From positions 1,203,435 to 1,267,434 of the forward strand of contig JBGAHS010000002.1 in NCBI GenBank assembly GCA_044226015.1: a stretch of DNA of 64,000 nucleotides. Reading direction: 5' to 3'. A model generated the notes under the pieces. It ran no database searches. It saw nothing but the letters and a program-made list of their open reading frames with translations, and was not told where the DNA came from. This stretch comes from Candidatus Obscuribacteraceae bacterium. GTDB taxonomy: Bacteria > Cyanobacteriota > Vampirovibrionia > Obscuribacterales > Obscuribacteraceae. The translations under genes and the position numbers were made by a program. Shown here one piece after another: positions 3,744 through 20,026 of this stretch. How positions within the stretch are numbered: the first letter of the stretch is position 1; each line of letters starts with the position of its first letter.

Positions 3744-4137
3744 GAACTTTTTACTCCCTTTCCGAGCGCTATCGCATGACAACACCAGGTCTGCTCAACG
3801 ACCCATCCCTCGCCTCTGGTAGATCCCTGACATCCTCGCTTAACATCTGCTAAGGCTTCCCTCGCTAGCTGCGTTAACTTCCATCCAGTTGTAAAGTAAC
3901 AATTGCATCGAAATTATTGCTTCTTGGGCTGCCAATTCCTTAGCTTAAGGACGCAATTTCCTCTCCCCACTTTCACAGGTCTAAACCCAGAGCCACTCAA
4001 AACCTACGCCAAAATCCTCTCGGCAGTGTCTGCTCTGGTTTTGAATTGCTATTCAGTTGCGCGCGCATCTGAGTAGTAATGTGCCTTTTGGAAGTGTGGA
4101 CAAGGAAGTTGAAGTCTCAAATCCTAACCTGGAGAAA

Positions 4138-4506
4138 ATGCACATGAACGTTCTGCTCTTCATCCCCGCGTTGCTTCTCGGCTTCCCGTTCGTCGTCGGG
4201 TCCTGGATCGCCGCGTCCCGCGTCTACAAGTTCCTCGCCTCGAAGTTCAGCGGCCAGACCTCCTTCGTGGTCACGCTCTGCCTCGCGGCCGCTGTCCTCA
4301 GCCTCCTCACCGCTCCGGCGTGGCTCATCGGCTGGCAGGGTTACGCGATCGTCTGCGCCGTCTACGTCATCTTCGTCGGTGTCGGCGCTCCGCACATCCG
4401 TCGCCTCCTGAAGTTCCTCGCCATCGAGCTGGACTCCGACCCGACCAACGACGTCCCGCTGCCGGAAGACGAGGTCAAAACGAAGGACGCCCCCAAGAAG
4501 GACTAA
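4138..4506 (+). CDS. Small multi-pass membrane protein
   Basis: RBS ggag at about 4131; 3-4 hydrophobic segments; strongly C-ending codons; hairpin follows. Confidence 0.75.
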   Translation: MHMNVLLFIPALLLGFPFVVGSWIAASRVYKFLASKFSGQTSFVVTLCLAAAVLSLLTAPAWLIGWQGYAIVCAVYVIFVGVGAPHIRRLLKFLAIELDSDPTNDVPLPEDEVKTKDAPKKD

Positions 4507-4560
4507 CAATCCTTCGACATGCGTCGCGTCTGAGTACCAAGTACTGAGTAAGTAACAAGC

Positions 4561-4605
4561 CCAGTAGGGAAGAACCCAGTTCTTCCCTACTGGTGCTTTG
4601 CTTTC
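4561..4605 (+). terminator. Intrinsic terminator
   Basis: ccagtagggaagaac-cca-gttcttccctactgg followed by a T-rich tract. Confidence 0.7.
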
Positions 4606-4677
4606 TTGCCTCAAAATCCGACGTTTTGTTTTTTCAGCCATTCTCTTATACGTTATAGTATTACGCCGCAGCGTCAA

Positions 4678-4794
4678 GTATCCTTCGATGCCGCCAGGAT
4701 GATATTGACCCCAAGCAGGATCCCAACAGACTCGCCACGCGTATCCTTCGATGCCGCCAGGATGATATTGACCCCAAGCAGGATCCCAACAGAC
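4678..4794. repeat. Exact 54-bp direct repeat x2 (63-bp period)
   Basis: gtatccttcgatgccgccaggatgatattgaccccaagcaggatcccaacagac at 4678-4731 and 4741-4794. Confidence 0.95.
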
Positions 4795-4884
4795 GGACCT
4801 AAGCAAGCACCTGTGCCAGCCAGCAGCTAGACGCGGATCCCTCCTTTAAGTAGAATCATCCTCAGCGTTTCGGGAACGTTCAGC

Positions 4885-6839: not shown

Positions 6840-9056
6840 ATGACTTTTGAAGACACTATCGGAATGTTACTAGCATTGGTTATCGTACTCGGATTTGCCT
6901 TCATGACCCTGCGGCACGAAAAGTGCCACAAACTGCAACTCAGATTCAACGAAAAGGTCTATGCACTCTCTCTCGCGGTGAACCAGTATCGCAGTCTCAA
7001 TTTCGAACTCCAACAAGGACCCAGCGGACTCAACAAAGACAATTGCAAATTCGTGAACTCCAGCCTTGAGGAACACAAAATTGCAAAAGATGCTTGGGCT
7101 AAATTCCTGAGCACCTACACACTTGCAGTTGCGAAGCTGAAAAGCGCTCAAGATTTTCAACACGAAGTGTCTGGAGTTCCAACCTGGTGGAGACTTCCAA
7201 CCTTGCTGGAAATTGCCCTGAAGAATCTCTTCGAAGGTGAATGCAAGGATTTGCCAGACAAACTGACAACAGAAGCAACTGCCGCGAGGGAAGCAATCCA
7301 ACGGTTTGTTACAGCACAAAAGACGAATGATGCGCAACTCTGCAAACTTAATAATCAAATAAGCGGGAACAGTAAGACTATCGTTCCATTGTTCGAAGAG
7401 CTGAAACTATGGGGTCCGACCAGCCCGAGGTACCAGACAGCAGTTACTAACGTGCAAGAGCAATACCTAGAGTTGGAACAGTCCCTAAAGCTGGATCCAC
7501 TTGATCCGAAACAGGAAGCTGTCGCAAATCTAGGAAAGCAGATTGCAAAGCTCACAGCGTTACTGCACAGAGCTCTGCGTCTATTCATTTCTCTTGAAGA
7601 GATGAGATACGCTGTCGTTCGGTTGGAAACGCGAATTGAGTCGATGCGAAACGACCAACCGCTTTCGACAATGACTAATGTACGTTATATCCAAAACGGA
7701 TTCACTCTGGACGAGCCTGGTTTCGAAGTACAGAGCATGCTTGATGATTGTCGAACGCTTCTGGGACTCATGGACAAAGCCCTCCTTAACAGGCGCTTGT
7801 ATTCTTTCAGTAAGTACCATAAGTTGTGTTCAACGAAAACTGAACAGTTGAAGCGTTTGCTCGCAGAAATACTGGACGACAAGTGTTTCGTAGACGAGCA
7901 GATGCAAGCGGTCAAAAAGCAATCCACTGTTGAAGACCGGAAGTCTGACAGGAAGCATTGGACCAAGATCCGCCGATTATACAAGGCTCAGCACTGGCAT
8001 GCAGCAATGCTCAGTGTGAAAGAATTCCTGCTTGAGCACACGCCACGCGTGCAAGCAAGAGAGCAAGTCGGAAAGTTGGCAGATTCTTTCGCGCAGGTAC
8101 TTCGTGTTCTGCAAGCTTATCCGAACGCGATTTCCTTCGAGCTTGATGCTGCTTTTCAGTTGATAACAACTGAGATTAGTTGTCTGCACCAGCAGGCAGC
8201 AAGCAGCAAGGCAGACTGGGCATCGCTAGCAAAGGAAGCTCAAGAACTGGACTTCCGTCTCGTGGGTTCTTCACCTGAATCACTTCTCTTCCGCGGACAG
8301 GCAGAGTTTAATGCCTACGAACAAGCTCAAACTGAGCTGAATAAGCTCATAGAGACAGTGCGCAGATTGGACGAAGAGTTTGCCTTTTGGTGTGGTGAGG
8401 AAGCCGCAAACAAACAGCAAGAGGTGCAGAAACAAGCTTCAGAACTCATCGAAGATGCGAAGATAATCAAACAAGATTGGCAGCAATTAACTGCGCAAAT
8501 TCTTAAGAACATGGAGCTCTTGGAAGAAGCAAACACTTTACTCGAATTGGCAAAGGAGAAACATAGACTTCAAGAATTGCAAATCGAAAAACTCGAAGCT
8601 CAGCTATCGACCTGTCAAAAGGACGAAGCATACAGTCGAGTGATTTGTGGCACCAAATTCGGTGCCTGCATCTACATTCAGGATGAACAGCCTCAGAAAC
8701 TGCTTGCAAAAGCAAAGGCAAGCTTGAAGGGTCGAGACTATGAATCCATGCATCTTGATCTCCAGCAGGCGCGCGCACGCCTGTCTTCAGAGAACGTTGA
8801 GGCATGGTGGTTGTGCTTACAATTGATGGCTAACAGCGATGTAGCTTGCGCGCGTTCATTCGCCCTCAAGCATGGTTACACTCCTGGAGGCTTTGATTTG
8901 TGGTCCCAAGAGAAACTGAAGACAGACCATGAAGAACTCTATGTTCCTTCAAGTCATGCCTGTGCACACAAAGGGGGAAGCGCTTATCCAGTGATCTACC
9001 CCAACGATTTTCCTGTCATGAGCGATTATGAAGGCGGGCTAGTGCCAGCCGGATGA
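6840..9056 (+). CDS. N-terminally membrane-anchored long helical/coiled-coil protein (paralog of 18173-20026)
   Basis: TM at aa ~7-23, extensive heptads; C-terminal WWLCLQLMANS..AL.HGY motif shared with the paralog. Confidence 0.75.
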   Translation: MTFEDTIGMLLALVIVLGFAFMTLRHEKCHKLQLRFNEKVYALSLAVNQYRSLNFELQQGPSGLNKDNCKFVNSSLEEHKIAKDAWAKFLSTYTLAVAKLKSAQDFQHEVSGVPTWWRLPTLLEIALKNLFEGECKDLPDKLTTEATAAREAIQRFVTAQKTNDAQLCKLNNQISGNSKTIVPLFEELKLWGPTSPRYQTAVTNVQEQYLELEQSLKLDPLDPKQEAVANLGKQIAKLTALLHRALRLFISLEEMRYAVVRLETRIESMRNDQPLSTMTNVRYIQNGFTLDEPGFEVQSMLDDCRTLLGLMDKALLNRRLYSFSKYHKLCSTKTEQLKRLLAEILDDKCFVDEQMQAVKKQSTVEDRKSDRKHWTKIRRLYKAQHWHAAMLSVKEFLLEHTPRVQAREQVGKLADSFAQVLRVLQAYPNAISFELDAAFQLITTEISCLHQQAASSKADWASLAKEAQELDFRLVGSSPESLLFRGQAEFNAYEQAQTELNKLIETVRRLDEEFAFWCGEEAANKQQEVQKQASELIEDAKIIKQDWQQLTAQILKNMELLEEANTLLELAKEKHRLQELQIEKLEAQLSTCQKDEAYSRVICGTKFGACIYIQDEQPQKLLAKAKASLKGRDYESMHLDLQQARARLSSENVEAWWLCLQLMANSDVACARSFALKHGYTPGGFDLWSQEKLKTDHEELYVPSSHACAHKGGSAYPVIYPNDFPVMSDYEGGLVPAG

Positions 9057-9088
9057 TTCGTCTTTCACGTTGCCTGAAGGGAGGCTTC

Positions 9089-11029
9089 ATGAATAGCTAT
9101 TTTTTGACTCGTCTTAGCAGCGAGCAGAAGAAAAAATTGGATGAGAAATCCATTGCCTACTTTGAATTCGCCCTCGGCGATGAGAATGGTTTGCTCCTGC
9201 AAGCTGACGCCATGGAATCAGCCCTGGAGGTTCTAGAGCTGATTGCGGAAGAACAAGTTGCCACAAACTACGAAGGTATTTTTCGTACCAGGGTAAGAGC
9301 TACTCACTCCGAACTCGCCTCAGCTGCGAACGTGGGCTCCTGGAAAGGCAAGAACAAGCATGGCATGTTGCAGATAGTTCAACAGCTGTTCTTGCCATAC
9401 TTGCAAAAACAGATCGTTTTGGAAAATCGCCACGGAGTTGTTGCACCCATCAACGATGGCAACTTCCACATTCACATCTACTCTGCACCTGTCAAAACAT
9501 CAGGTTGCAACACTCCCAAAACGATCTGGGGAATTCCCACTCAGTCCTCTAGCAATTCCTGGAGTCCAAGCGGCAAAGGGACTTGCTTCTACGACGGCAA
9601 ATACGCCGTTGCAGAACTTCTCGAGCAGAACAATCTGTATGTTTTCCATAATCTAGCGGAGAGTGGAAATGTTAATGAGGAGATGCTGTTCTCAGTTCTC
9701 CTCGATCGTGTTTTGCAACACCTGCAGCCTGAGCAATCAGAAGCCCAGGCAAAGCACCTGTTTATCGATGCTTGTTCGTACTTTCGCTGCGCTGGACTCA
9801 CCGAAGCCAGCGGTTCTGCCGACGAGCTTCAGGTATCAATCCGAGAGCTTAAGAAAGAGTTGAAGAAATGCTCACGCGCAGCCGCTGCTGAAGAACTCAA
9901 ACTTCTTCGCAATGAGAAAATTTCAACTGATGAAATCTTTGCAGCGGAATACGAGAATCTTCTCAAAGTTCCAAAAGTAACAGATGTTCAAGTTGAAAAC
10001 GGCGTCATCATCGTTTCAACAGAAGTACTTTACGCAAAGGATCCGCGATCGGACAAATATCACGAGATTGGCGCATTCAAGATTCACCTTTCACCCGAAA
10101 ATGAGAGCCCCCGCTGGTTCAATCAGACGCGGCTGGTAAAATCAATTGGTACGAAACCAATGCAAGCGGTGCACGTCTTTAACAGCGGCATGGCCTGCCT
10201 CGGAAACACAGAAGCCTTGTTCAAAGACTTGTTTAAGCAGCGAGAATGGGCGCTCGCAGCGCAGGTAGCCATAGAATTTGCCGAGAGCGTAAATCAGCGT
10301 CAGCGCGACAATGCTGGTTTACATGTAACCGAGTGGCCGGAAGCTGCTGATGCTGATGTTGCGCGCCGCGATAAACGCATCAGTCGACCCAAAAAGTTAA
10401 CTGATGCACAACTCGCGTACAAGCCGCAGTACATCTCTGCTTGTGCCGATCGTGTGAACTCGCTGATTAAAGATTCTCTCTGTCAGATCGAATCGATACG
10501 CAGAACAGTTGAAGAACTTCAAGCTGAGCTCGTTTCCCTTTTGCGGAACCGCGCCTCAAAATTGAAACAGGCGACTCGTAAGAAACTCTGCAATCGAGAT
10601 GAAATTGCAGCGGAATTCGACGCGCTGTTAAGAGTCCCGAAAGTAACTGGCGTTCGTGTACAAGATCGCAGTGTCACAATTTCGACTGAGACACTGTTTT
10701 GCACCTGTCCAAATTCCAAACTCAAACGAGAAATTGGCAGTTTCCTGATCAAAATCAATCTGGATGGAAGCGGAGATTGCGTGCGCTGGATAAATACCAG
10801 CCGCCAGGTCAAAGCTCTCTTTCAGAAGCAAAACGCCGTCCGAGTGCTAAGTAGCGGGCGTGCGCTGTTCAGCGATATTCGCGAATCCTTCCCGGATCTG
10901 ATTGCTGACTTCAAGTTGGCAATTCTTGCACAGCTGGCAATTGAATTCATCGAACAAATTGATGCCGATGAGCCAGCTTCCTCTTTCCTTGATCAATGGC
11001 CAGAGTCCCAAACCTCAGGAGCAATCTAA
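9089..11029 (+). CDS. Prokaryotic E2-fold protein with two tandem coiled-coil+E2 modules (first active-type, second inactive)
   Basis: RBS gggagg before ATG 9089; repeat period 223 aa; module 1 AVHVFNSGMACLGN (His and Cys, Cys codon 10196), module 2 AVRVLSSGRALFSD; adjacent JAB, ThiF and Ubl genes. Confidence 0.75.
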   Translation: MNSYFLTRLSSEQKKKLDEKSIAYFEFALGDENGLLLQADAMESALEVLELIAEEQVATNYEGIFRTRVRATHSELASAANVGSWKGKNKHGMLQIVQQLFLPYLQKQIVLENRHGVVAPINDGNFHIHIYSAPVKTSGCNTPKTIWGIPTQSSSNSWSPSGKGTCFYDGKYAVAELLEQNNLYVFHNLAESGNVNEEMLFSVLLDRVLQHLQPEQSEAQAKHLFIDACSYFRCAGLTEASGSADELQVSIRELKKELKKCSRAAAAEELKLLRNEKISTDEIFAAEYENLLKVPKVTDVQVENGVIIVSTEVLYAKDPRSDKYHEIGAFKIHLSPENESPRWFNQTRLVKSIGTKPMQAVHVFNSGMACLGNTEALFKDLFKQREWALAAQVAIEFAESVNQRQRDNAGLHVTEWPEAADADVARRDKRISRPKKLTDAQLAYKPQYISACADRVNSLIKDSLCQIESIRRTVEELQAELVSLLRNRASKLKQATRKKLCNRDEIAAEFDALLRVPKVTGVRVQDRSVTISTETLFCTCPNSKLKREIGSFLIKINLDGSGDCVRWINTSRQVKALFQKQNAVRVLSSGRALFSDIRESFPDLIADFKLAILAQLAIEFIEQIDADEPASSFLDQWPESQTSGAI

Positions 11030-12240
11030 TGTATTTTTCAAGAAGAGAACAGCCTCTTACACCCCACAGTTTCAATACGCAGGTCAGGTTTCTGCCCAAA
11101 GCAGAACCGAAGAAACCGCGAATTGTTCTTTCCCGACTAGCATTTGCACAGATGACTGTGTATGTGAAAATCGCACAGGAAGAAGTCGGTTGGATGGGCA
11201 CAGTGAAGCGCCTTCCAGATGGTGACTTTCTGATTGAAAAGTGTTTCTTGTTCAAGCAGAAGGTCCATGCAACTGAAACTGAAATCAGCACAGAAGGATT
11301 CTCTGAACTCTCAATGGAGCTGCTCAACACAGCGACTGATGACGAAGACGAATCGAACTGGGAGGTGAACAAGCTCCGTTTCTGGGGTCATTCACACGTC
11401 AGAATGGCTACAGGACCCTCAGACACAGACCAGCGTGCGATGCTCACCTCATTCGGCAAGGGACACTCTAACAACACCGGGCAGCTTCGTTTTTGCTTCG
11501 AAGAATGCGGTTATCCTTGGGTGATTCGCGGTATCTTCAACAAATTCGGTGAAGCGAACTTTGATGTTTATCTTTATTCTGAAGGCTTGCACTTTGCGGA
11601 CGTTGAGTGGACGGTAGAAGACCCTAGCGCAGAAGAGATTGCTTTACAGAAGCAGGTCGATACGCTCTGTTTAGCCATCCAAACAGGACTGTTTCCAAAT
11701 AAAGAAACAACAAAACCTGCCAAGGTTGCCACTCTCGGAGAGCCTGAGTCCGACTCAAGCGTCTGTCCTCAAAGGAAGAGTCCTAATACCTTCGGTTTTG
11801 GCATCGATCGTGAACTGAGGTATTGGCCTCACATTACTCCGGAATTGCGTACCGCCATTCAACAAGAATTCGACAAGAAGGTTGTAAGTGTGCGTCGTCA
11901 TTCAGAAGAGCCGCAGCAAACGAAATCCGGATGGCGGTCCATGTTTCAACAACGTACTAGCAGCGCACAGGTTCAAACCAACTCTGCAGATTCCTCAACT
12001 TCGACCGAGCAATATCCAAGCGAGTTCGGTGATGAAGTCTACGGGCGAGGCTCAGCTCCCGACATGGGCTCAGCCTCTGCAAGACCAGCTCTTCAAATCG
12101 GCAAAGAACATCGAGCCGAAACACCGCGAACAAATGAAGTGCGGTGGATTGCACCAAAACCAAAAGAAACGCCCAAAACGACCAGCATTTCTGAAACCTT
12201 GCGCACGGCATGGAGCGAGCTCCTCGACTTCCTCTCCTAG
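11029..12240 (+). CDS. JAB/MPN+ metallopeptidase with long disordered C-terminal tail
   Basis: EEVGW...WGHSHVRMATGPSDTD = E..HxH..PSxxD; ATG overlaps the upstream stop (taatg). Confidence 0.88.
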   Translation: MYFSRREQPLTPHSFNTQVRFLPKAEPKKPRIVLSRLAFAQMTVYVKIAQEEVGWMGTVKRLPDGDFLIEKCFLFKQKVHATETEISTEGFSELSMELLNTATDDEDESNWEVNKLRFWGHSHVRMATGPSDTDQRAMLTSFGKGHSNNTGQLRFCFEECGYPWVIRGIFNKFGEANFDVYLYSEGLHFADVEWTVEDPSAEEIALQKQVDTLCLAIQTGLFPNKETTKPAKVATLGEPESDSSVCPQRKSPNTFGFGIDRELRYWPHITPELRTAIQQEFDKKVVSVRRHSEEPQQTKSGWRSMFQQRTSSAQVQTNSADSSTSTEQYPSEFGDEVYGRGSAPDMGSASARPALQIGKEHRAETPRTNEVRWIAPKPKETPKTTSISETLRTAWSELLDFLS

Positions 12241-12315
12241 AACGGTCGATAGAGCTTAGTGTTCTCAGATTCTATTTCAACAAAAACCACACACACTTTT
12301 TTGAAAGTAGTACAC

Positions 12316-13002
12316 ATGATTGATACGCAACGACATCTGTCAGTTTTTGATCCAGATGCTTTTGGCAGCAAGATTGTCGACGTAATCGGTGTCGGTGCTA
12401 CCGGCTCGAAGGTTGTACTCAGCCTGGCTAAGCTGGGCATCCAAAACATTCGTGCATGGGACGCCGACGTTCTCGAAGCGCACAACATCTGCAACCAGGC
12501 ATACGCAAAAGAAGATATCGGCCTGAAAAAGGTCGAAGCTCTGAAGGAAATGGTCTGGCGCCAAGCCGGCTTGAACCTGGATGCAAGAGCTGAATATGTT
12601 GACGGCACACAAGAACTCGGTCCAATCGTATTCTTGCTAACCGACACTATGTCCTCCCGCAAGAAGATCTGGGAAGGCAGCTTGCGCTTCAAATCGCGTG
12701 TCAAGCTAGTGGTGGAAACCCGCCTTGGCGCTGAGTCGTCGTACATTTACAGTATCAACCCTTGCTCACTGCCTGAAGTACAGGGTTGGGAAAGCACACT
12801 CTGCGATGACGATAAAGTTGAGCGCTCCGCATGTGGAAGCAAGATTTCCGTCGGTCCCAGCGCTGGAATTCTCGCAGAGAAGGCTGTATGGCAATTGATT
12901 CGCTGGTTCGCCATCGAGAACGGTCAGGATGACGTTCTTGACCATGAGATCATCGAGTCCTTCCGTCCACCTGCAATCTACACCAGACAGTTCGAAGATT
13001 GA
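12316..13002 (+). CDS. ThiF/E1-like Ubl-activating enzyme
   Basis: VIGVGATGS (GxGxxG), DADVLEAHNICNQ, GLKKV, LTDT, ETRLG; candidate catalytic Cys in ERSACG (codon 12832); no CxxC Zn site. Confidence 0.9.
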   Translation: MIDTQRHLSVFDPDAFGSKIVDVIGVGATGSKVVLSLAKLGIQNIRAWDADVLEAHNICNQAYAKEDIGLKKVEALKEMVWRQAGLNLDARAEYVDGTQELGPIVFLLTDTMSSRKKIWEGSLRFKSRVKLVVETRLGAESSYIYSINPCSLPEVQGWESTLCDDDKVERSACGSKISVGPSAGILAEKAVWQLIRWFAIENGQDDVLDHEIIESFRPPAIYTRQFED

Positions 13003-13202
13003 GAGAATTTGACTCCAAACAGATCTTCATCAGCAGAACCGCCACCGCTATCGGTGGCTTAGCCTTCAACCGATAGCGCCTGGCGACGTTATCGACTGAA
13101 GACACAAAACTGGATGCGACAGCGCTCAGCTCTGCATCCAAGACAACTTAACTAAAAACTCTATCCAAGACATACTCATCCTTTACGAAAGAGCAGTTAA
13201 AC

Positions 13203-13457
13203 ATGTCCACTGAAAACAGTAATAAAAACGGTGTCGATAGCGCTCCTGAAATGCTCAGCGTGCGAGTCGGCAAAATGCCTGGCAACATCACAATCAAGAA
13301 GGTCTCCCCAGGCTCAACAGCGGCTGACGTGTTGCGCATGGCAGACCTTGACCCCAGCGACCACGAAGTGCGTGTCAATGGAGTTCCAGCCAACCTGACT
13401 CAAAAATTGCGGCACAACGATGCGGTGTTGTTGTTCAAGCCACTGGCCGGCAACTAG
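13203..13457 (+). CDS. Ubiquitin-like (beta-grasp) protein 1, C-terminus ...LAGN
   Basis: ThiS/MoaD/Ub-like pattern (GSTAADVL, VRVNG, LRHNDAVLL); directly follows E1. Confidence 0.85.
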   Translation: MSTENSNKNGVDSAPEMLSVRVGKMPGNITIKKVSPGSTAADVLRMADLDPSDHEVRVNGVPANLTQKLRHNDAVLLFKPLAGN

Positions 13458-13554: not shown

Positions 13555-14478
13555 ATGGGAACTTTCATTAATGTGTTCGTTCTTGGACCACTCCTGGGAC
13601 TGCTTACTATTCAGTTGCTGGCTCGGGTACACCAAATCAAGAATCGTGTTTTGCCGAAGCCCAAGAATGAGCTGCGAGTGCTAGTAAATGGCGTCGCTGT
13701 GATTTTCGAACTGATTGGCATGTGCGCAATCAGCATGTTTTTGGGCGCCGGAATTCTCGCTCTGTCAGTGCCAATGCTGTTGATCGCTCAGCTTATCATT
13801 GCCGGTGAAGATGCTGGCGAAGATAACGTCAAAGCAAAAATGGTTATTGAAACCTACCAGCGATGGTCTACCAGGTTCAAGCTCGTCGCCCAGATTACGT
13901 TCAATCATGGACGGGTGCTAGTACAATCGTACACAAGTAGCCGTTCTCCTCGATCCTCCGAGAACGCAACAGTCGGCACGACAGAAAAAACTCCTACCCG
14001 TGCTGAGCCGATTAGCTGCCCACGAAAACCATTGAGTGAGCAAGAATTGCTACAGCAACTGGTGGCAAAGGTTGCACAGTTACAACAATGGGCATCGCGC
14101 CCAGAATCTGACCGTGTAGCCGTTGCTGAACTGACAAAGCAGGCGCGCGACCTGGAGGAAGCACTCAATGCTGAAGTGCAAAAGCTTGAAACCGGCACCA
14201 CCGACTGGAAAGACATCTGCTCTCACATCGAAGGTCTAAACCGCCATCAGCTACCGGCAGAGCTATCCAGCGCACTCAATGAACTGGTTCAAGAGCGTGC
14301 CGCCAAGCTTGACACCAATCGGGATGATGTTGCTCTGCTTTCGAGCGAGTTGCGCGCCACAGCAGACAACCTGAAGCAAAAGCTCACCACGCGGTCTCTC
14401 TCTCCTGAAGAAGTGATCAGCTCTGCTAATGCAGCACTGGATTCGGCTGAGCAAGTCTGCTCAAAATCCCAAAGCTAA
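13555..14478 (+). CDS. Membrane protein (about 3 TM) with C-terminal coiled-coil domain homologous to downstream CC proteins
   Basis: Hydrophobic N-terminus; C-terminal LQQLVAKVAQLQ...SPEEVISSANAALDSAEQV aligns to LNDVLAQVQKLQ...SAEDAILDAEAAIAEAAQV. Confidence 0.75.
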   Translation: MGTFINVFVLGPLLGLLTIQLLARVHQIKNRVLPKPKNELRVLVNGVAVIFELIGMCAISMFLGAGILALSVPMLLIAQLIIAGEDAGEDNVKAKMVIETYQRWSTRFKLVAQITFNHGRVLVQSYTSSRSPRSSENATVGTTEKTPTRAEPISCPRKPLSEQELLQQLVAKVAQLQQWASRPESDRVAVAELTKQARDLEEALNAEVQKLETGTTDWKDICSHIEGLNRHQLPAELSSALNELVQERAAKLDTNRDDVALLSSELRATADNLKQKLTTRSLSPEEVISSANAALDSAEQVCSKSQS

Positions 14479-14514
14479 GTAGCACACAAGCACGATGACA
14501 TAGATTTCGTCTAA

Positions 14515-14572
14515 CAGCAGGTCGCAATGTCTGCTGGGCTCCCAAAAGGCAGGCCCAAACGGGCCTGTCTTT
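14515..14572 (+). other. Two-hairpin intergenic RNA element, copy 1
   Basis: cagcag/ctgctg stem and aaaggcaggccc-aaac-gggcctgtcttt stem; conserved with compensatory changes in copy 2. Confidence 0.55.
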
Positions 14573-14630
14573 CTGGAAATTTGTACACACTCAAAATGTT
14601 CACAAGCACACCTAACTGAAAGAACCGAAA

Positions 14631-15164
14631 ATGGGACTCTACACAGCCAAGACTAACTCAATGGAAGCGCTGAACGACGTACTGGCACAAGTACAAAAGC
14701 TCCAAGCAAATGTCGGTCTTACCGAGACAGAGCGAGCTGAACGTCAGCGCCTGCAAGCTGAAGTACAGTCAAAACAACAAGCCCTGCAAACAGCGACGCA
14801 GCGCCTGAAGTCTACGACTGAGATTTGCGAGCAAACCGCGGCACGTATCCAGACGATCGCTGATATCAGCGCTTCCCTTGGCACCGAAATGGCTGCATTG
14901 CCAACTGACCTGCAGACTCAATGCGCCGCCGTGAACGACCATTTGACTGGCTTGTCCTCTAAGCTGTCCGAACTGGCAAACTCATGCCAAAACGACAAAG
15001 CGACGGCAAGAGAAGTGGTCGAGCAAAAGAAAGGCGAACTCCAGTCTGCCAAGGAAGCTCTCCTCGCTGATATCAACAAGCAACGCCCTTCAGCTGAAGA
15101 CGCCATTCTTGATGCAGAAGCAGCAATCGCCGAAGCGGCACAAGTCTCATCGAACCAGGACTAA
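14631..15164 (+). CDS. Soluble coiled-coil protein CC1
   Basis: 177 aa, A/E/Q/L-rich heptads; near-identical paralog at 15711. Confidence 0.85.
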   Translation: MGLYTAKTNSMEALNDVLAQVQKLQANVGLTETERAERQRLQAEVQSKQQALQTATQRLKSTTEICEQTAARIQTIADISASLGTEMAALPTDLQTQCAAVNDHLTGLSSKLSELANSCQNDKATAREVVEQKKGELQSAKEALLADINKQRPSAEDAILDAEAAIAEAAQVSSNQD

Positions 15165-15251
15165 AGTTCCCGTCCGAGTTCAAATTCGCTCAGCCCATGT
15201 TTATTGCCTGTAACCATTTCACAAAATCCTCTTGTAACAGGACAGCTATAG

Positions 15252-15503
15252 ATGACCATCAACAAAAACAACAGCGGCGTTGAGCCCACTCCAGAGATGC
15301 TCAGTGTGCGAGTCGGCAAAATGCCTGGCAATATCACAATCAAGAAAGTCTCAACCGGTTCAACAGCTTCTGACGTGTTGCGCATGGCAGACCTTGATCC
15401 GACCGATCACGAAGTGCGTGTCAACGGAGTTCCTGCCAATTTGACTCAAGAGCTGCGTCATAACGATGCGGTGTTGTTATTCAAGCCTCTGGCGGGCAAC
15501 TAG
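15252..15503 (+). CDS. Ubiquitin-like protein 2, C-terminus ...LAGN
   Basis: 66/70 aa identical to Ubl1 from PEMLSV to the end, with many synonymous differences. Confidence 0.85.
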   Translation: MTINKNNSGVEPTPEMLSVRVGKMPGNITIKKVSTGSTASDVLRMADLDPTDHEVRVNGVPANLTQELRHNDAVLLFKPLAGN

Positions 15504-15554
15504 CAACAGGCTCTGCAGTCAGCTGAGCAAGTTTGCTCAAAATCCCAAAGCTAA
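15504..15554 (+). pseudogene. 3' remnant of a deleted second copy of the TM-coiled-coil gene
   Basis: Reads QQALQSAEQVCSKSQS*, versus NAALDSAEQVCSKSQS* at the end of 13555-14478. Confidence 0.75.
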
Positions 15555-15593
15555 GTTGTGCTTACAAAGCACAATGATATCGATTTGGTCTAA

Positions 15594-15652
15594 CAGCAGA
15601 TCGCAATGTCTGCTGGATTCCCAACAGACAGACCCAAACGGGTCTGTCTGTT
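15594..15652 (+). other. Two-hairpin intergenic RNA element, copy 2
   Basis: cagcaga/tctgctg stem and aacagacagaccc-aaac-gggtctgtctgtt stem. Confidence 0.55.
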
Positions 15653-15710
15653 TGCAAATTTGTACACAGTGTCAAATGTTCACAAGCACACCTAACTGAA
15701 AGAACCGAAA

Positions 15711-16241
15711 ATGGGACTCTACACCAAGGCTGACTCAATGGAAGCGCTGAACGACGTACTGGCTCAAGTAAAGAAGCTGCAAGCAGAAACCAGCCTCACC
15801 GAGACAGAGCGTGCTGAACGTCAGCGCCTGCAAGCTGAAGTACAGTCAAAACAACAAGCCCTGCAAACAGCGACGCAGCGCCTGAAGTCTACGACTGAGA
15901 TTTGCGAGCAGACCGCGGCACGTATCCAAACTATCGCTGACATTGCAGCGTCACTCAGCACCGAAATGGCTGCATTGCCAACGGACCTGCAGACTCAATG
16001 CACCGCCGTGAACGACCATTTGACCGGCTTATCCACTAAGTTGTCCGAACTGGCAAACTCATGTCAAAACGACAAATCGGCGGCCAGAGAAGCGGTAGAG
16101 CAAAAGAAAGGCGAGCTGCAGTCTGCAAAGGAAGCTCTCCTCGCTGATATCAACAAGCAACGCCCTTCAGCTGAAGACGCCATTCTTGATGCAGACGCAG
16201 CAATCGCCGAAGCAGCACGAGTCTCAGCGAACCAGAACTAA
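15711..16241 (+). CDS. Soluble coiled-coil protein CC2
   Basis: 176 aa, duplicate of CC1 including the upstream region (ctgaaagaaccgaaaatgggactc). Confidence 0.85.
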   Translation: MGLYTKADSMEALNDVLAQVKKLQAETSLTETERAERQRLQAEVQSKQQALQTATQRLKSTTEICEQTAARIQTIADIAASLSTEMAALPTDLQTQCTAVNDHLTGLSTKLSELANSCQNDKSAAREAVEQKKGELQSAKEALLADINKQRPSAEDAILDADAAIAEAARVSANQN

Positions 16242-16343
16242 AGTTCTCGCCTAGTTTACCCTGGCAAATAGCATCCAACTACATGAATGCTATTTGCCTC
16301 TCTACGAATTTCCACCAAATCCGTTAACAACGAAAGACATCAA

Positions 16344-17126
16344 ATGAGCCAATCATCCTATTTCCTGCCAGCCTTGACTGCCGCAGACGCACAAACCCTG
16401 GAAGCTGCTGGCTGCATCTGTGCATTGACCACAATCAACCATGAGACTGGATACATCATCAATCCTGGAGACCTGGAATTGGCAATCCAGCGCTTGAACG
16501 CCGTAGTCGATCAAATGAATTCGACAGGTCAGTTCGGCGTCATGCGCGTGACTCTCCTTCGCACAGACGTAGCGACGGCTCGCACGAAGCAGCGAGGCAC
16601 TTCTTCGAAAGATAGCTCTATGGAAGCGCTGTCCACTGTACTTGCCCAGGTGCAACGGCTTCAGGCGCAGGTCAATCTCACAGACACTGAACGTGATGAA
16701 CGTCTACGCTTACAAGCTGAAGTTCAGTCGAAACAGAAAGATCTGGAAACCGCAACTCAGCGCCTGAAGTCAACTGTTGCGATCTACAATCAAACCGCAG
16801 CGCGCATTCGTACAATCGCAGAAATTGCGGGTGCACTGGGCACAGAAATGGAAGCTTTGCCTGCTGAACTGCAGGGTCAATGCAGCTCTGTCAACGAGCA
16901 TCTAAACGGTCTGGCAGCCAAACTCACCGATCTGGCAAATTCCTGCCAAAACGACAAAGCCGCAGCGCTGCAAGCAGTCGAGGGAAAGAAATCCGAGCTT
17001 CAAGCCGCTAAGGATGCTCTGGTCAACGACATGAGCAAGAAACGAGTTTCGGCTGAAGAAGCCCTGCTCGATGCAGAAACCGCGCTCAACGACGCAGAGA
17101 GCGTCGCATTCAAGCAACAAAGTTGA
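16344..17126 (+). CDS. Coiled-coil protein CC3 with an N-terminal ~70-aa domain shared with the E2 protein
   Basis: From SMEAL onward it aligns with CC1/CC2; N-terminal SYFL..L domain aligns gaplessly to 9095-9304. Confidence 0.82.
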   Translation: MSQSSYFLPALTAADAQTLEAAGCICALTTINHETGYIINPGDLELAIQRLNAVVDQMNSTGQFGVMRVTLLRTDVATARTKQRGTSSKDSSMEALSTVLAQVQRLQAQVNLTDTERDERLRLQAEVQSKQKDLETATQRLKSTVAIYNQTAARIRTIAEIAGALGTEMEALPAELQGQCSSVNEHLNGLAAKLTDLANSCQNDKAAALQAVEGKKSELQAAKDALVNDMSKKRVSAEEALLDAETALNDAESVAFKQQS

Positions 17127-18172: not shown

Positions 18173-20026
18173 TTAGTTCCACGGTGCCTTGAAATCAGGA
18201 GCAGGCCCGAAGTCAGCGCCACCACCATTGGTGCCGTTCAAATCGGGTTGCCACAGACCTCCGGCCGAGGTGGCACGCTTGCTGACAAAACCGTCGACCC
18301 ATTCCGTGCAGGTTTTGTCATCGCGGTAACCGTTGTTCCAGGCAGTGCGCTGGGCAACCCGGTCGTTGCTGTTCCGCATTTGCCGCAGAAGATTGAACCA
18401 GCCAATGTTATTGACTGCCCCAAGCTCTTTGCGCAATGAACGGACAGCCTCAGAATAACCGACCTGCTCGCCAGCACGCCAGGCGCGAACAGCCGCATCG
18501 TAGCGAGCCGAAGCCTCATCGAGGTGGCTGCTAAAATTGCTGTCGCGTCGGCTTGCATCTGCACCGCTGTAGTTCCGTCCATTGATGGTGCAGCTAAAGG
18601 CGTTCCACGCGCTGCTCTGCTTGAGCTGGGTCTTCAGCTCGGACAACTCATCCCACTTCTTGTTGTCGTCGTTGACTGCCTGCTTCGCATCCTTCAACTT
18701 CTGGATGCCGTCTTCTGCGTCTCGCTTCACCTGACGCCAATCCTGCTTGGTCAAGCGAATCTGACGTTCGATGCGAGTAGAGATGTCGTTTATAACGTTG
18801 ACCTTCTGCTTCGTTGCATCAGTCAATTCGTTATGCAGACTTTGAGACAGGAAGCTCAACGGAGGGGTTCCGTTGCGATCCGCATCTTCAAAGTCACGAC
18901 GGAAGTTCTTCACGGCAACCAGCGCATCATCGTAATCACGACGAGACTGCACAGCCTCGTCGCGAACAGCGTTCAACGACTTCTCAATACTCTGACCACT
19001 GGACTTCAGGTCAGTCCAATTAGAGTGGTCTTGCTTGAGCGACTCAGCAAGGCTGTTGAGCTGATTCTTCAGCGACTCGAACTTCTGGTCAGTGCTCGTC
19101 GAAGTGAAGTTCGCATTGTCTTCCAACGAGCGCGCAACATCTCGCTGCAGACGCTGACAGTACGCAACTACCTCACGCGTTTCGCGGCGATCCTCAATGC
19201 GCTGATTAAGCGCATCCATCCGACGAGCTGCACTCACGAACTTGTGTTCGAAGTAAGCTGCCTTGACGGAAGATTCGTAGCTGCTATCGCTGCCCTCGGA
19301 CTTCTGCAAAATCGCCGTCAATTCACTCTCTACCCGCTTCTTAGAGCTGAAAGCGCGATCGATGCAAGCAGTGGCGGACGCAGCAGAAGACTTGGCGTTT
19401 TTCAGAGAAGCAGCAGCTGAACGCGGGTCACCAGCTTCCAACGCCCCATCGATACTGTCCAGTGAGCGGCGGGCAGCCGAGATGTGCGCGTCTGGGTTGT
19501 TGTCCTCCTCTTCAAGGCGCAGCTTCTCCGAGCGCGAAGAAGTACCAGGATAGTTGAGGTCGATCGTTTGCCGGCGCGCTTGCTCAACACGCTCTTCGGC
19601 ATTGCTGAGAGCGGAACGAGCGCCGCTGTCAGTCTTCACCTCGATAGCCAGATTCAGATCAGACAGCACTGATTGGAAGTGCCCCTCCGCTTCCGCGGAG
19701 ATTTTGTCGGCGGCCTGCGGGTCGCGCGAAAGTACGGTTTCCGCCGTCTTCAGCTCACGTTCAGCCGAGTCGAAGCGACTCTGGTAGGGCTGAAACTTGA
19801 GGCCGGTTCCTGAAAGGGTGCCTTGCTGTCGCAAGATTTGCGCCTGCAGCTGGTGGCAGGCAGCGATGTGCGCCTGGCTGCTGGTTTTCGCCGCCTCGAC
19901 ATTGTGCCGATGGATGGCGTAGCCGATGATGCTGCCGATGATCACAACGGCGGCGATGGCGATAGCGATGATGACGCCCTGATTCGCCTGCCCCCGTCGA
20001 TTCCGATTCGTGTTACTCATGTTCAT
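18173..20026 (-). CDS. Membrane-anchored long helical/coiled-coil protein (paralog of 6840-9056)
   Basis: N-terminal TM (VIIAIAIAAVVIIGSIIG); KQDWRQV and WFNLLRQMRNS..AWNNGY match KQDWQQL and WWLCLQLMANS..ALKHGY. Confidence 0.8.
   Translation of the reverse strand: MNMSNTNRNRRGQANQGVIIAIAIAAVVIIGSIIGYAIHRHNVEAAKTSSQAHIAACHQLQAQILRQQGTLSGTGLKFQPYQSRFDSAERELKTAETVLSRDPQAADKISAEAEGHFQSVLSDLNLAIEVKTDSGARSALSNAEERVEQARRQTIDLNYPGTSSRSEKLRLEEEDNNPDAHISAARRSLDSIDGALEAGDPRSAAASLKNAKSSAASATACIDRAFSSKKRVESELTAILQKSEGSDSSYESSVKAAYFEHKFVSAARRMDALNQRIEDRRETREVVAYCQRLQRDVARSLEDNANFTSTSTDQKFESLKNQLNSLAESLKQDHSNWTDLKSSGQSIEKSLNAVRDEAVQSRRDYDDALVAVKNFRRDFEDADRNGTPPLSFLSQSLHNELTDATKQKVNVINDISTRIERQIRLTKQDWRQVKRDAEDGIQKLKDAKQAVNDDNKKWDELSELKTQLKQSSAWNAFSCTINGRNYSGADASRRDSNFSSHLDEASARYDAAVRAWRAGEQVGYSEAVRSLRKELGAVNNIGWFNLLRQMRNSNDRVAQRTAWNNGYRDDKTCTEWVDGFVSKRATSAGGLWQPDLNGTNGGGADFGPAPDFKAPWN

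Follow-up and report, generated by a model that had tools for sequence, protein, structure and literature searches.

An E2/pseudo-E2 fusion within a ubiquitin-like conjugation operon of Obscuribacterales

The window analyzed here is a 64,000-nucleotide stretch from Candidatus Obscuribacteraceae bacterium (GCA_044226015.1, contig JBGAHS010000002.1, positions 1,203,435 to 1,267,434 of the forward strand; coordinates below count from its first letter). An open reading frame (ORF) of 658 aa at 9053-11029 (+) encodes a fusion of a ubiquitin-conjugating-type enzyme (E2) and a pseudo-E2, composed of two modules that each combine a coiled coil with an E2 domain, and belongs to a same-strand cluster with genes for a JAB peptidase, a ThiF-type activating enzyme (E1), ubiquitin-like proteins (Ubls) ending in Gly-Asn, and membrane and coiled-coil proteins. 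Translation likely starts at Met13 (codon 9089), a start shared by homologs. A preliminary description of this DNA covered the two modules but omitted the N-terminal 225 aa, which comprise two further domains, as well as the surrounding operon.

Architecture of the fusion protein

The fusion and its parts are as follows.

9053..11029 (+), E2/pseudo-E2 fusion, 658 aa, likely start 9089 (ORF, alignment, structure model)
9089..9301 (+), N80, a small alpha/beta N-terminal domain (custom hidden Markov model run on the loci; secondary structure)
9314..9727 (+), middle domain, weakly like class I glutamine-amidotransferase-like and GH42 domains
9740..9916 (+), module 1 helix and coiled coil, with a degenerate helix motif (1 of 4 positions; model, motif tally)
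9926..10345 (+), module 1 E2 (UBC-fold) head, predicted to be active: His374 (10172), Cys382 (10196), Gly384, Asn385, Asn414, Asp419
10403..10573 (+), module 2 helix and coiled coil, with the motif K457-x2-Y460-x3-C464-x2-R467 ... R498
10595..11005 (+), module 2 pseudo-E2 head: Arg597, Leu605 (10865), Ser607, Asp608

The N80 domain is common to stand-alone pseudo-E2 genes and to the protein encoded at 16287-17126, and the middle domain is present two or three times over in many relatives.

The duplication of a 223-aa module, proposed in the preliminary description, was borne out by the alignments. The spacing separates HLFIDAC (aa 235) from PQYISAC (aa 458) and equally HVFNSGMACLG from RVLSSGRALFS; the modules are 34% identical over 200 aa (E 6e-31), and their local alignment score of 253 compares with a maximum of 55 in 1000 shuffles. 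The two key codons had likewise been placed correctly, with TGC at 10196 for Cys382 and CTG at 10865 for Leu605, and the assignment of module 1 as an E2-fold domain with intact His and Cys holds: in a profile match to bacterial UQ_con E2s, His374 and Cys382 align with HPHV..G..CLG, and a fold search also supports the UBC fold. Module 2 matches module 1 in profile comparison with probability 100. Its head keeps none of the six active-site positions defined below, but the scaffold residues are kept, and across twins, as we call the second, pseudo-E2 copies, this scaffold (T, L, G, I, N, AP, G, L, WP) is retained whole. The E2 gene is single-copy in the source genome. Because a single contig from an unrelated 2016 activated-sludge run of another study spans 8800-13198, with no listed difference inside the fusion ORF, the fusion is no assembly artefact.

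Reciprocal split between paired modules and its evolution

We compared 95 single-type modules (87 of them library proteins without genomic context, classed by best hit), 49 first modules, and 47 second modules, the last set leaving out viral and two truncated rows. The helix motif R-x2-Y-x3-C-x2-R...R was scored at four positions (the Cys uncounted) and the active-site set at six (His, Cys, Gly, Asn385, Asn414, and Asp419), the scored columns having been picked after the data were seen. At least three of the four helix-motif positions are present in 81/95 single-type, 2/49 first, and 47/47 second modules, and at least five of the six active-site positions in 94/95, 49/49, and 0/47, respectively; all 47 second modules keep at most three of the six. 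After thinning at 80% identity, the motif Tyr has frequencies of 0.92, 0.10, and 1.00 in single, first, and second modules, and the active-site His 1.00, 1.00, and 0.12. The window obeys the split, with 1/4 helix and 6/6 active-site positions in module 1 and 3/4 and 0/6 in module 2; the exceptions are two viral pairs and a reversed fusion, P0035. As read from these sequences, single-gene relatives keep both sets, and in pairs the predicted active copy keeps the catalytic set only and its twin the helix motif only. Beyond the shared scaffold, twin conservation concerns mainly the helix motif, outside the E2 head; twin-biased head positions (Ala at 328, Glu at 385, and Ser/Thr before 390) are few.

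Among the fetched loci (one duplicate dropped), 51 adjacent pairs were found, 49 in Obscuribacterales and 2 on viral contigs. Of the 49 Obscuribacterales pairs, 42 have the twin as an adjoining gene of its own and 7 have it fused, the tandem fusion seen in the window being a minority, incidental state. The 17 unpaired modules comprise 9 from single-gene operons and 8 from Obscuribacterales, every one of the latter at a contig end. All 50 distinct first-module sequences have His, Cys, and the Gly two residues on. Among 50 second modules (one truncated row dropped), His is present in 8, Cys in 28, and Gly in 3, with all three together in a single viral sequence and in no Obscuribacterales twin; in the 20 fused proteins of the subtype defined by the upstream gene up738 (see below), module 2 has Cys in 11 and His in 2. 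Module 2 thus stands, as had been proposed, as a conserved pseudo-E2 and not as a product of random decay, but the expectation that it would be systematically Cys-less does not hold.

Named homologs belong to Candidatus Obscuribacterales and Melainabacteria. Matches occur in 35/107 genomes of the window's order and in 0/300 other sampled genomes of the phylum; the family numbers 1149 representatives at 50% identity, and none of the four libraries scanned contains a model for it. A tree of 53 rows places all 23 second modules in a single clade (support 97/96), where module 2 of the window groups with stand-alone twins; a quick tree of 180 rows gives the same picture less firmly (support 82), and a constraint joining the window's two modules was rejected by the approximately unbiased (AU) test (p-AU 5e-8). 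Among these 23 second modules, the fused or separate state changed at least 3 times and the Cys state at least 6 times. First modules have a median ratio of nonsynonymous to synonymous substitution rates (dN/dS) of 0.10 and second modules one of 0.12 (43/59 close pairs with usable dS), for pairs that are almost all unfused and share genomes. The tree and these ratios indicate that the twins are old and under purifying selection.

The nine single-gene loci come from Saccharibacteria, Parcubacteria, a Thermoanaerobaculia genome, and two other metagenome-assembled genomes (MAGs); each has one E2 with a JAB and an E1, and seven have a Ubl. Since these genomes hold one E2 copy each (they are MAGs and possibly incomplete), the pathway exists without a twin. 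Two viral contigs (L074, 7551-12310; L075, 7158-11306; L and P numbers are our handles) carry the operon with a second E2 copy of their own, which in L074 lacks the Cys and has an Apyc1-like gene nearby; these second copies appear to be independent duplications. Separately, eukaryote-like UQ_con E2 genes (L115-L128) were seen in 14 of 251 genomes sampled across the phylum; one family has them in all 8 of its sampled genomes.

Operon context and subtypes

The remaining features of the cluster are as follows.

6840..9056 (+), up738, membrane-anchored long helical protein, 738 aa, with an N-terminal hydrophobic segment
10996..12240 (+), JAB/MPN-type peptidase, likely start 11029; Glu codon 11182, HSH-x7-S-x2-D at 11389
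12259..13002 (+), ThiF-family E1 (Pfam ThiF, E 9.5e-12); GxGxxG (12388), SACG cysteine (12832)
13203..13457 (+), Ubl 1, ends Gly-Asn; weak ThiS match (E 0.008)
13555..14478 (+), membrane protein with helical C-terminus, 307 aa; kept after the Ubl in fused-type operons (L021, L033, L099, L100)
14631..15164 (+), coiled-coil protein copy 1, 177 aa, 90% identical to 15711-16241
15252..15503 (+), Ubl 2, ends Gly-Asn, 87% identical to Ubl 1
15711..16241 (+), coiled-coil protein copy 2, 176 aa
16287..17126 (+), N80 and coiled-coil protein, likely start 16344; homologs in L021, L099, L100
17290..17320 (+), terminator-like hairpin of 14 pairs 3' of the cluster, a consensus match only; such sites are no commoner than in shuffles

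The likely JAB start overlaps the E2 stop as TAATG. No Pfam model scored this ORF, and we take it to be a JAB from its motif and gene context; the motif (Glu ... HxH-x7-S-x2-D) is present in all 53 JAB ORFs tallied. The [AVS]CG motif of the E1 is found in 47/50 E1 ORFs, one of the three misses being truncated. The Gly-Asn end is invariant in 53/54 Ubl domains and also occurs inside poly-Ubl precursors of related loci, and no Lys column of the Ubl is invariant (the best reaches 30/54 domains). The repeated genes reflect a local tandem duplication at 14434-16256, which covers the coiled-coil gene (753 bp, 89% DNA identity) and the Ubl (246 bp, 85%). In L021 (2486-3226) a Ubl is fused in frame to a coiled coil, parts that are separate genes in the window, and in L034 (11518-12330) and L035 (10054-10668) the Ubl has an in-frame coiled-coil or helical tail past Gly-Asn; these fusions resemble eukaryotic ubiquitin fusions.

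Two operon subtypes were distinguished. In one, the E2 usually has an N-terminal membrane segment of its own and a gene for a ClpB-like AAA+ ATPase follows the E1; such a gene lies 20-202 bp past the E1 in 26/38 Obscuribacterales E1 loci (including L022, L023, L025, L077-L081, and L101-L111). The window's subtype carries its anchor on the gene before the E2, has coiled-coil genes after the Ubl, and shows no ClpB-like gene next to the operons. Its marker is up738, which matches no Pfam family at cut-off and lies directly upstream of the E2 in the window, L021, L027, L028, L085, L088, L090-L092, and L100. Several genomes carry three or more pairs of E2 and twin, and extra pairs without an adjoining JAB or E1 occur in L077-L080, L085, and L088-L092, some next to a complete operon. 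No E3 gene was seen in the operons of the examined loci.

Two observations concern the flanks. Just beyond the cluster, 18173-20026 (-) encodes a 617-aa membrane-anchored paralog of up738, and at 4117-4806, between a response regulator and a GntR/PLP regulator, a G+C-richer stretch with a short direct repeat is possibly a small mobile or repeated element.

Proposed mechanism, alternatives, and relation to known systems

A model of the full-length fusion (pLDDT 84.4, pTM 0.53, 22 sequences) implies that helix 256-288 would pack antiparallel to helix 451-507, an arrangement that would set Tyr460 and Arg467 next to the active head and leave the dead one at the opposite end. In the fold search, many helical hairpins, presumably antiparallel, align over residues about 253-509 (72-79 aa, rmsd about 2-3 Å). 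Taken with the reciprocal split, this geometry makes it fairly probable, in our judgment, that the active and dead halves form an obligate heterodimer in which the twin lends a conserved helix that supports the working E2. The single-gene ancestor would likely have been an antiparallel coiled-coil homodimer, with the RxxYxxxCxxR helix of each subunit bracing the E2 head of the other; if one subunit's helix served its partner's head, complementary loss after duplication is expected. One duplication in Obscuribacterales may then have left the catalytic set to the active copy and the helix to the twin, and the pair may later have fused in some lineages, including that of the window. In the conjugation pathway, the JAB would trim the Ubl at its Gly-Asn end, the E1 would adenylate it and, through Cys192, pass it on to module 1 at Cys382, for transfer by the E2 to the target without an E3. 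As the least certain step, a membrane anchor, on the E2 or the upstream gene, together with the ClpB-like ATPase might direct mono-tagging of membrane-associated targets for their remodelling or removal.

On this basis we tentatively outline an Obscuribacterales tag-and-extract pathway, a scenario that we consider less likely than not, in which an active E2 with its pseudo-E2 activator would be membrane-anchored and coupled to a ClpB-like unfoldase or to coiled-coil partners, in parallel to endoplasmic-reticulum-associated degradation (ERAD) and p97, with the homodimer, heterodimer, and fused stages extant. Roles in conflict or stress would suit the scattered occurrence and the several copies in a genome, but no sign of defence was seen: PADLOC gave no match for the E2 or Ubl, and the window's other Pfam-matched genes are not defence genes.

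The main alternative is that the twin head is a binder like the ubiquitin E2 variants (UEVs), holding an acceptor Ubl for chain building, or the target in place of an E3, which would be compatible with a heterodimer. There is precedent in an E2/UEV pair (PMC5325457), the operons show no E3 gene, a few head positions are twin-biased, and the dead head keeps its entire fold-defining scaffold rather than being deleted; because that scaffold is conserved, a binding role retains some probability, although we consider it unlikely. The Ubl offers no invariant Lys for chains, single-gene operons without a twin keep the same E1, JAB, and Ubl, the twin-specific head positions are mostly less than 90% conserved, and in the model the coiled coil keeps the two heads apart, one at either end, whereas Ubc13 and Mms2 touch directly. 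The Mms2-like acceptor role suggested in the preliminary description is therefore unsupported.

Less probable still is that the same heterodimer serves a chemistry other than protein lysine conjugation, for example the transfer of sulfur or, at the membrane, the modification of small molecules or lipids. The E1 is ThiF-like, the Ubl has weak ThiS/SAMP2 scores, and its terminal Gly is followed by an invariant Asn that lacks an explanation; however, no sulfur-pathway gene is conserved beside the operon, the combination of JAB, E2, poly-Ubl precursors, and adjacent ClpB-like ATPase suits protein tagging, and the related Bil and Bub operons conjugate to proteins, according to the passages compared (10.1101/2024.11.21.623953). 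It is very improbable that module 2 is a second active enzyme with a hydroxyl nucleophile. Such a reading draws on the Bub E2s, once termed inactive, which use an invariant Ser according to the passages seen, and on a column seven residues past the Cys position that holds Ser or Thr in 40/47 second modules; but this column mixes the two residues, differs from the Cys-equivalent site, and has Ser/Thr in 22/95 single-type modules as well, the Cys position is varied, no invariant His or acid stands alongside, and the E1 retains its Cys. Finally, a recent internal duplicate decaying without function might account for the patchy Cys loss and for the aberrant C-terminus of one homolog near a contig end (P0009/L027), but is refuted for the family by the dN/dS of twins (measured almost wholly on unfused ones), their single old clade, the AU rejection, and the helix motif in 47/47; all unpaired Obscuribacterales modules also lie at contig ends.

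The E2/pseudo-E2 Ubl-conjugation operon is real, conserved, and apparently undescribed; no description was found in the literature searched, which excluded subscription papers and bioRxiv supplements. With the heterodimer as the favored reading, a bacterial pair of active and dead E2s would have arisen on its own, apparently by complementary loss within a dimer and not for chain building. As single-gene, two-gene, and fused stages are all extant, the birth of a pseudo-enzyme becomes testable by part swaps. The system would also add a type of bacterial Ubl-conjugation operon in which links with a membrane anchor and an unfoldase are frequent.

Among known systems, Type II cyclic-oligonucleotide-based antiphage signaling systems (CBASS) combine a CD-NTase with the E2-E1 fusion Cap2, whereas the E1 here stands alone; the PADLOC E1-E2 models match only the nucleotide-binding stretch of the E1, and no CD-NTase matched among the window genes scanned. 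Operon class 6d, which we take to be PRTRC-like, is a second point of reference, and the PRTRC ThiF model scored 31 bits against a cut-off of 144.75. In the parts of Iyer et al. 2006 consulted, class 6d likewise has separate Ubl, JAB, E1, and E2 genes with helical proteins, but the classical His is missing from its E2s, which carry one after the Cys, whereas the family here has the classical upstream His (PMC1779556). Ubc13 with Mms2 or Uev1A also pairs an active E2 with a non-catalytic variant, and Mms2 holds the acceptor ubiquitin and directs Lys63 at Ubc13, as given in the passages compared (PMC5325457); here no Lys of the Ubl is invariant, a coiled coil is predicted to join the pair, and the twin derives from a duplication of this bacterial gene, independently of eukaryotic UEVs.

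Bub (6E/DUF6527) operons, so far as the excerpts describe them, share a homodimeric ThiF-like E1, a JAB, an E2-fold protein without Cys, and poly-Ubl precursors (10.1101/2024.11.21.623953; 10.1101/2024.11.21.623966). Their E1 and E2 are Cys-less and act through Tyr and Ser oxyesters, whereas the E1 and first E2 here keep their Cys; and Bub has Ubl-E2/JAB-E1 or E2-E1 fusions plus BubE, whereas here these genes are not fused to one another and lack a conserved BubE-like companion. The window's operon genes gave no Pfam match to DUF6527/BubE, and a column tally found no Bub-type invariant Ser/His in the twins. BilABCD is close in having four parts (Ubl, E2, JAB, and E1) without an E3 and a Cys-based E1 and E2 (10.1101/2023.09.26.559546; 10.1101/2024.11.21.623953). 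According to the same passages, BilD is a multidomain IAD-AAD-CYS E1, compared with a single ThiF domain of about 230 aa here, and BilB has a conserved His after the Cys (CEHH), compared with a His eight residues before the Cys and no conserved His after it; neither the N-terminal domains and coiled coil of the E2 nor a pseudo-E2 twin is described for Bil there. The system thus matches Bil by gene set, yet falls outside the E1 and E2 definitions of Bil, as well as those of Bub and CBASS.
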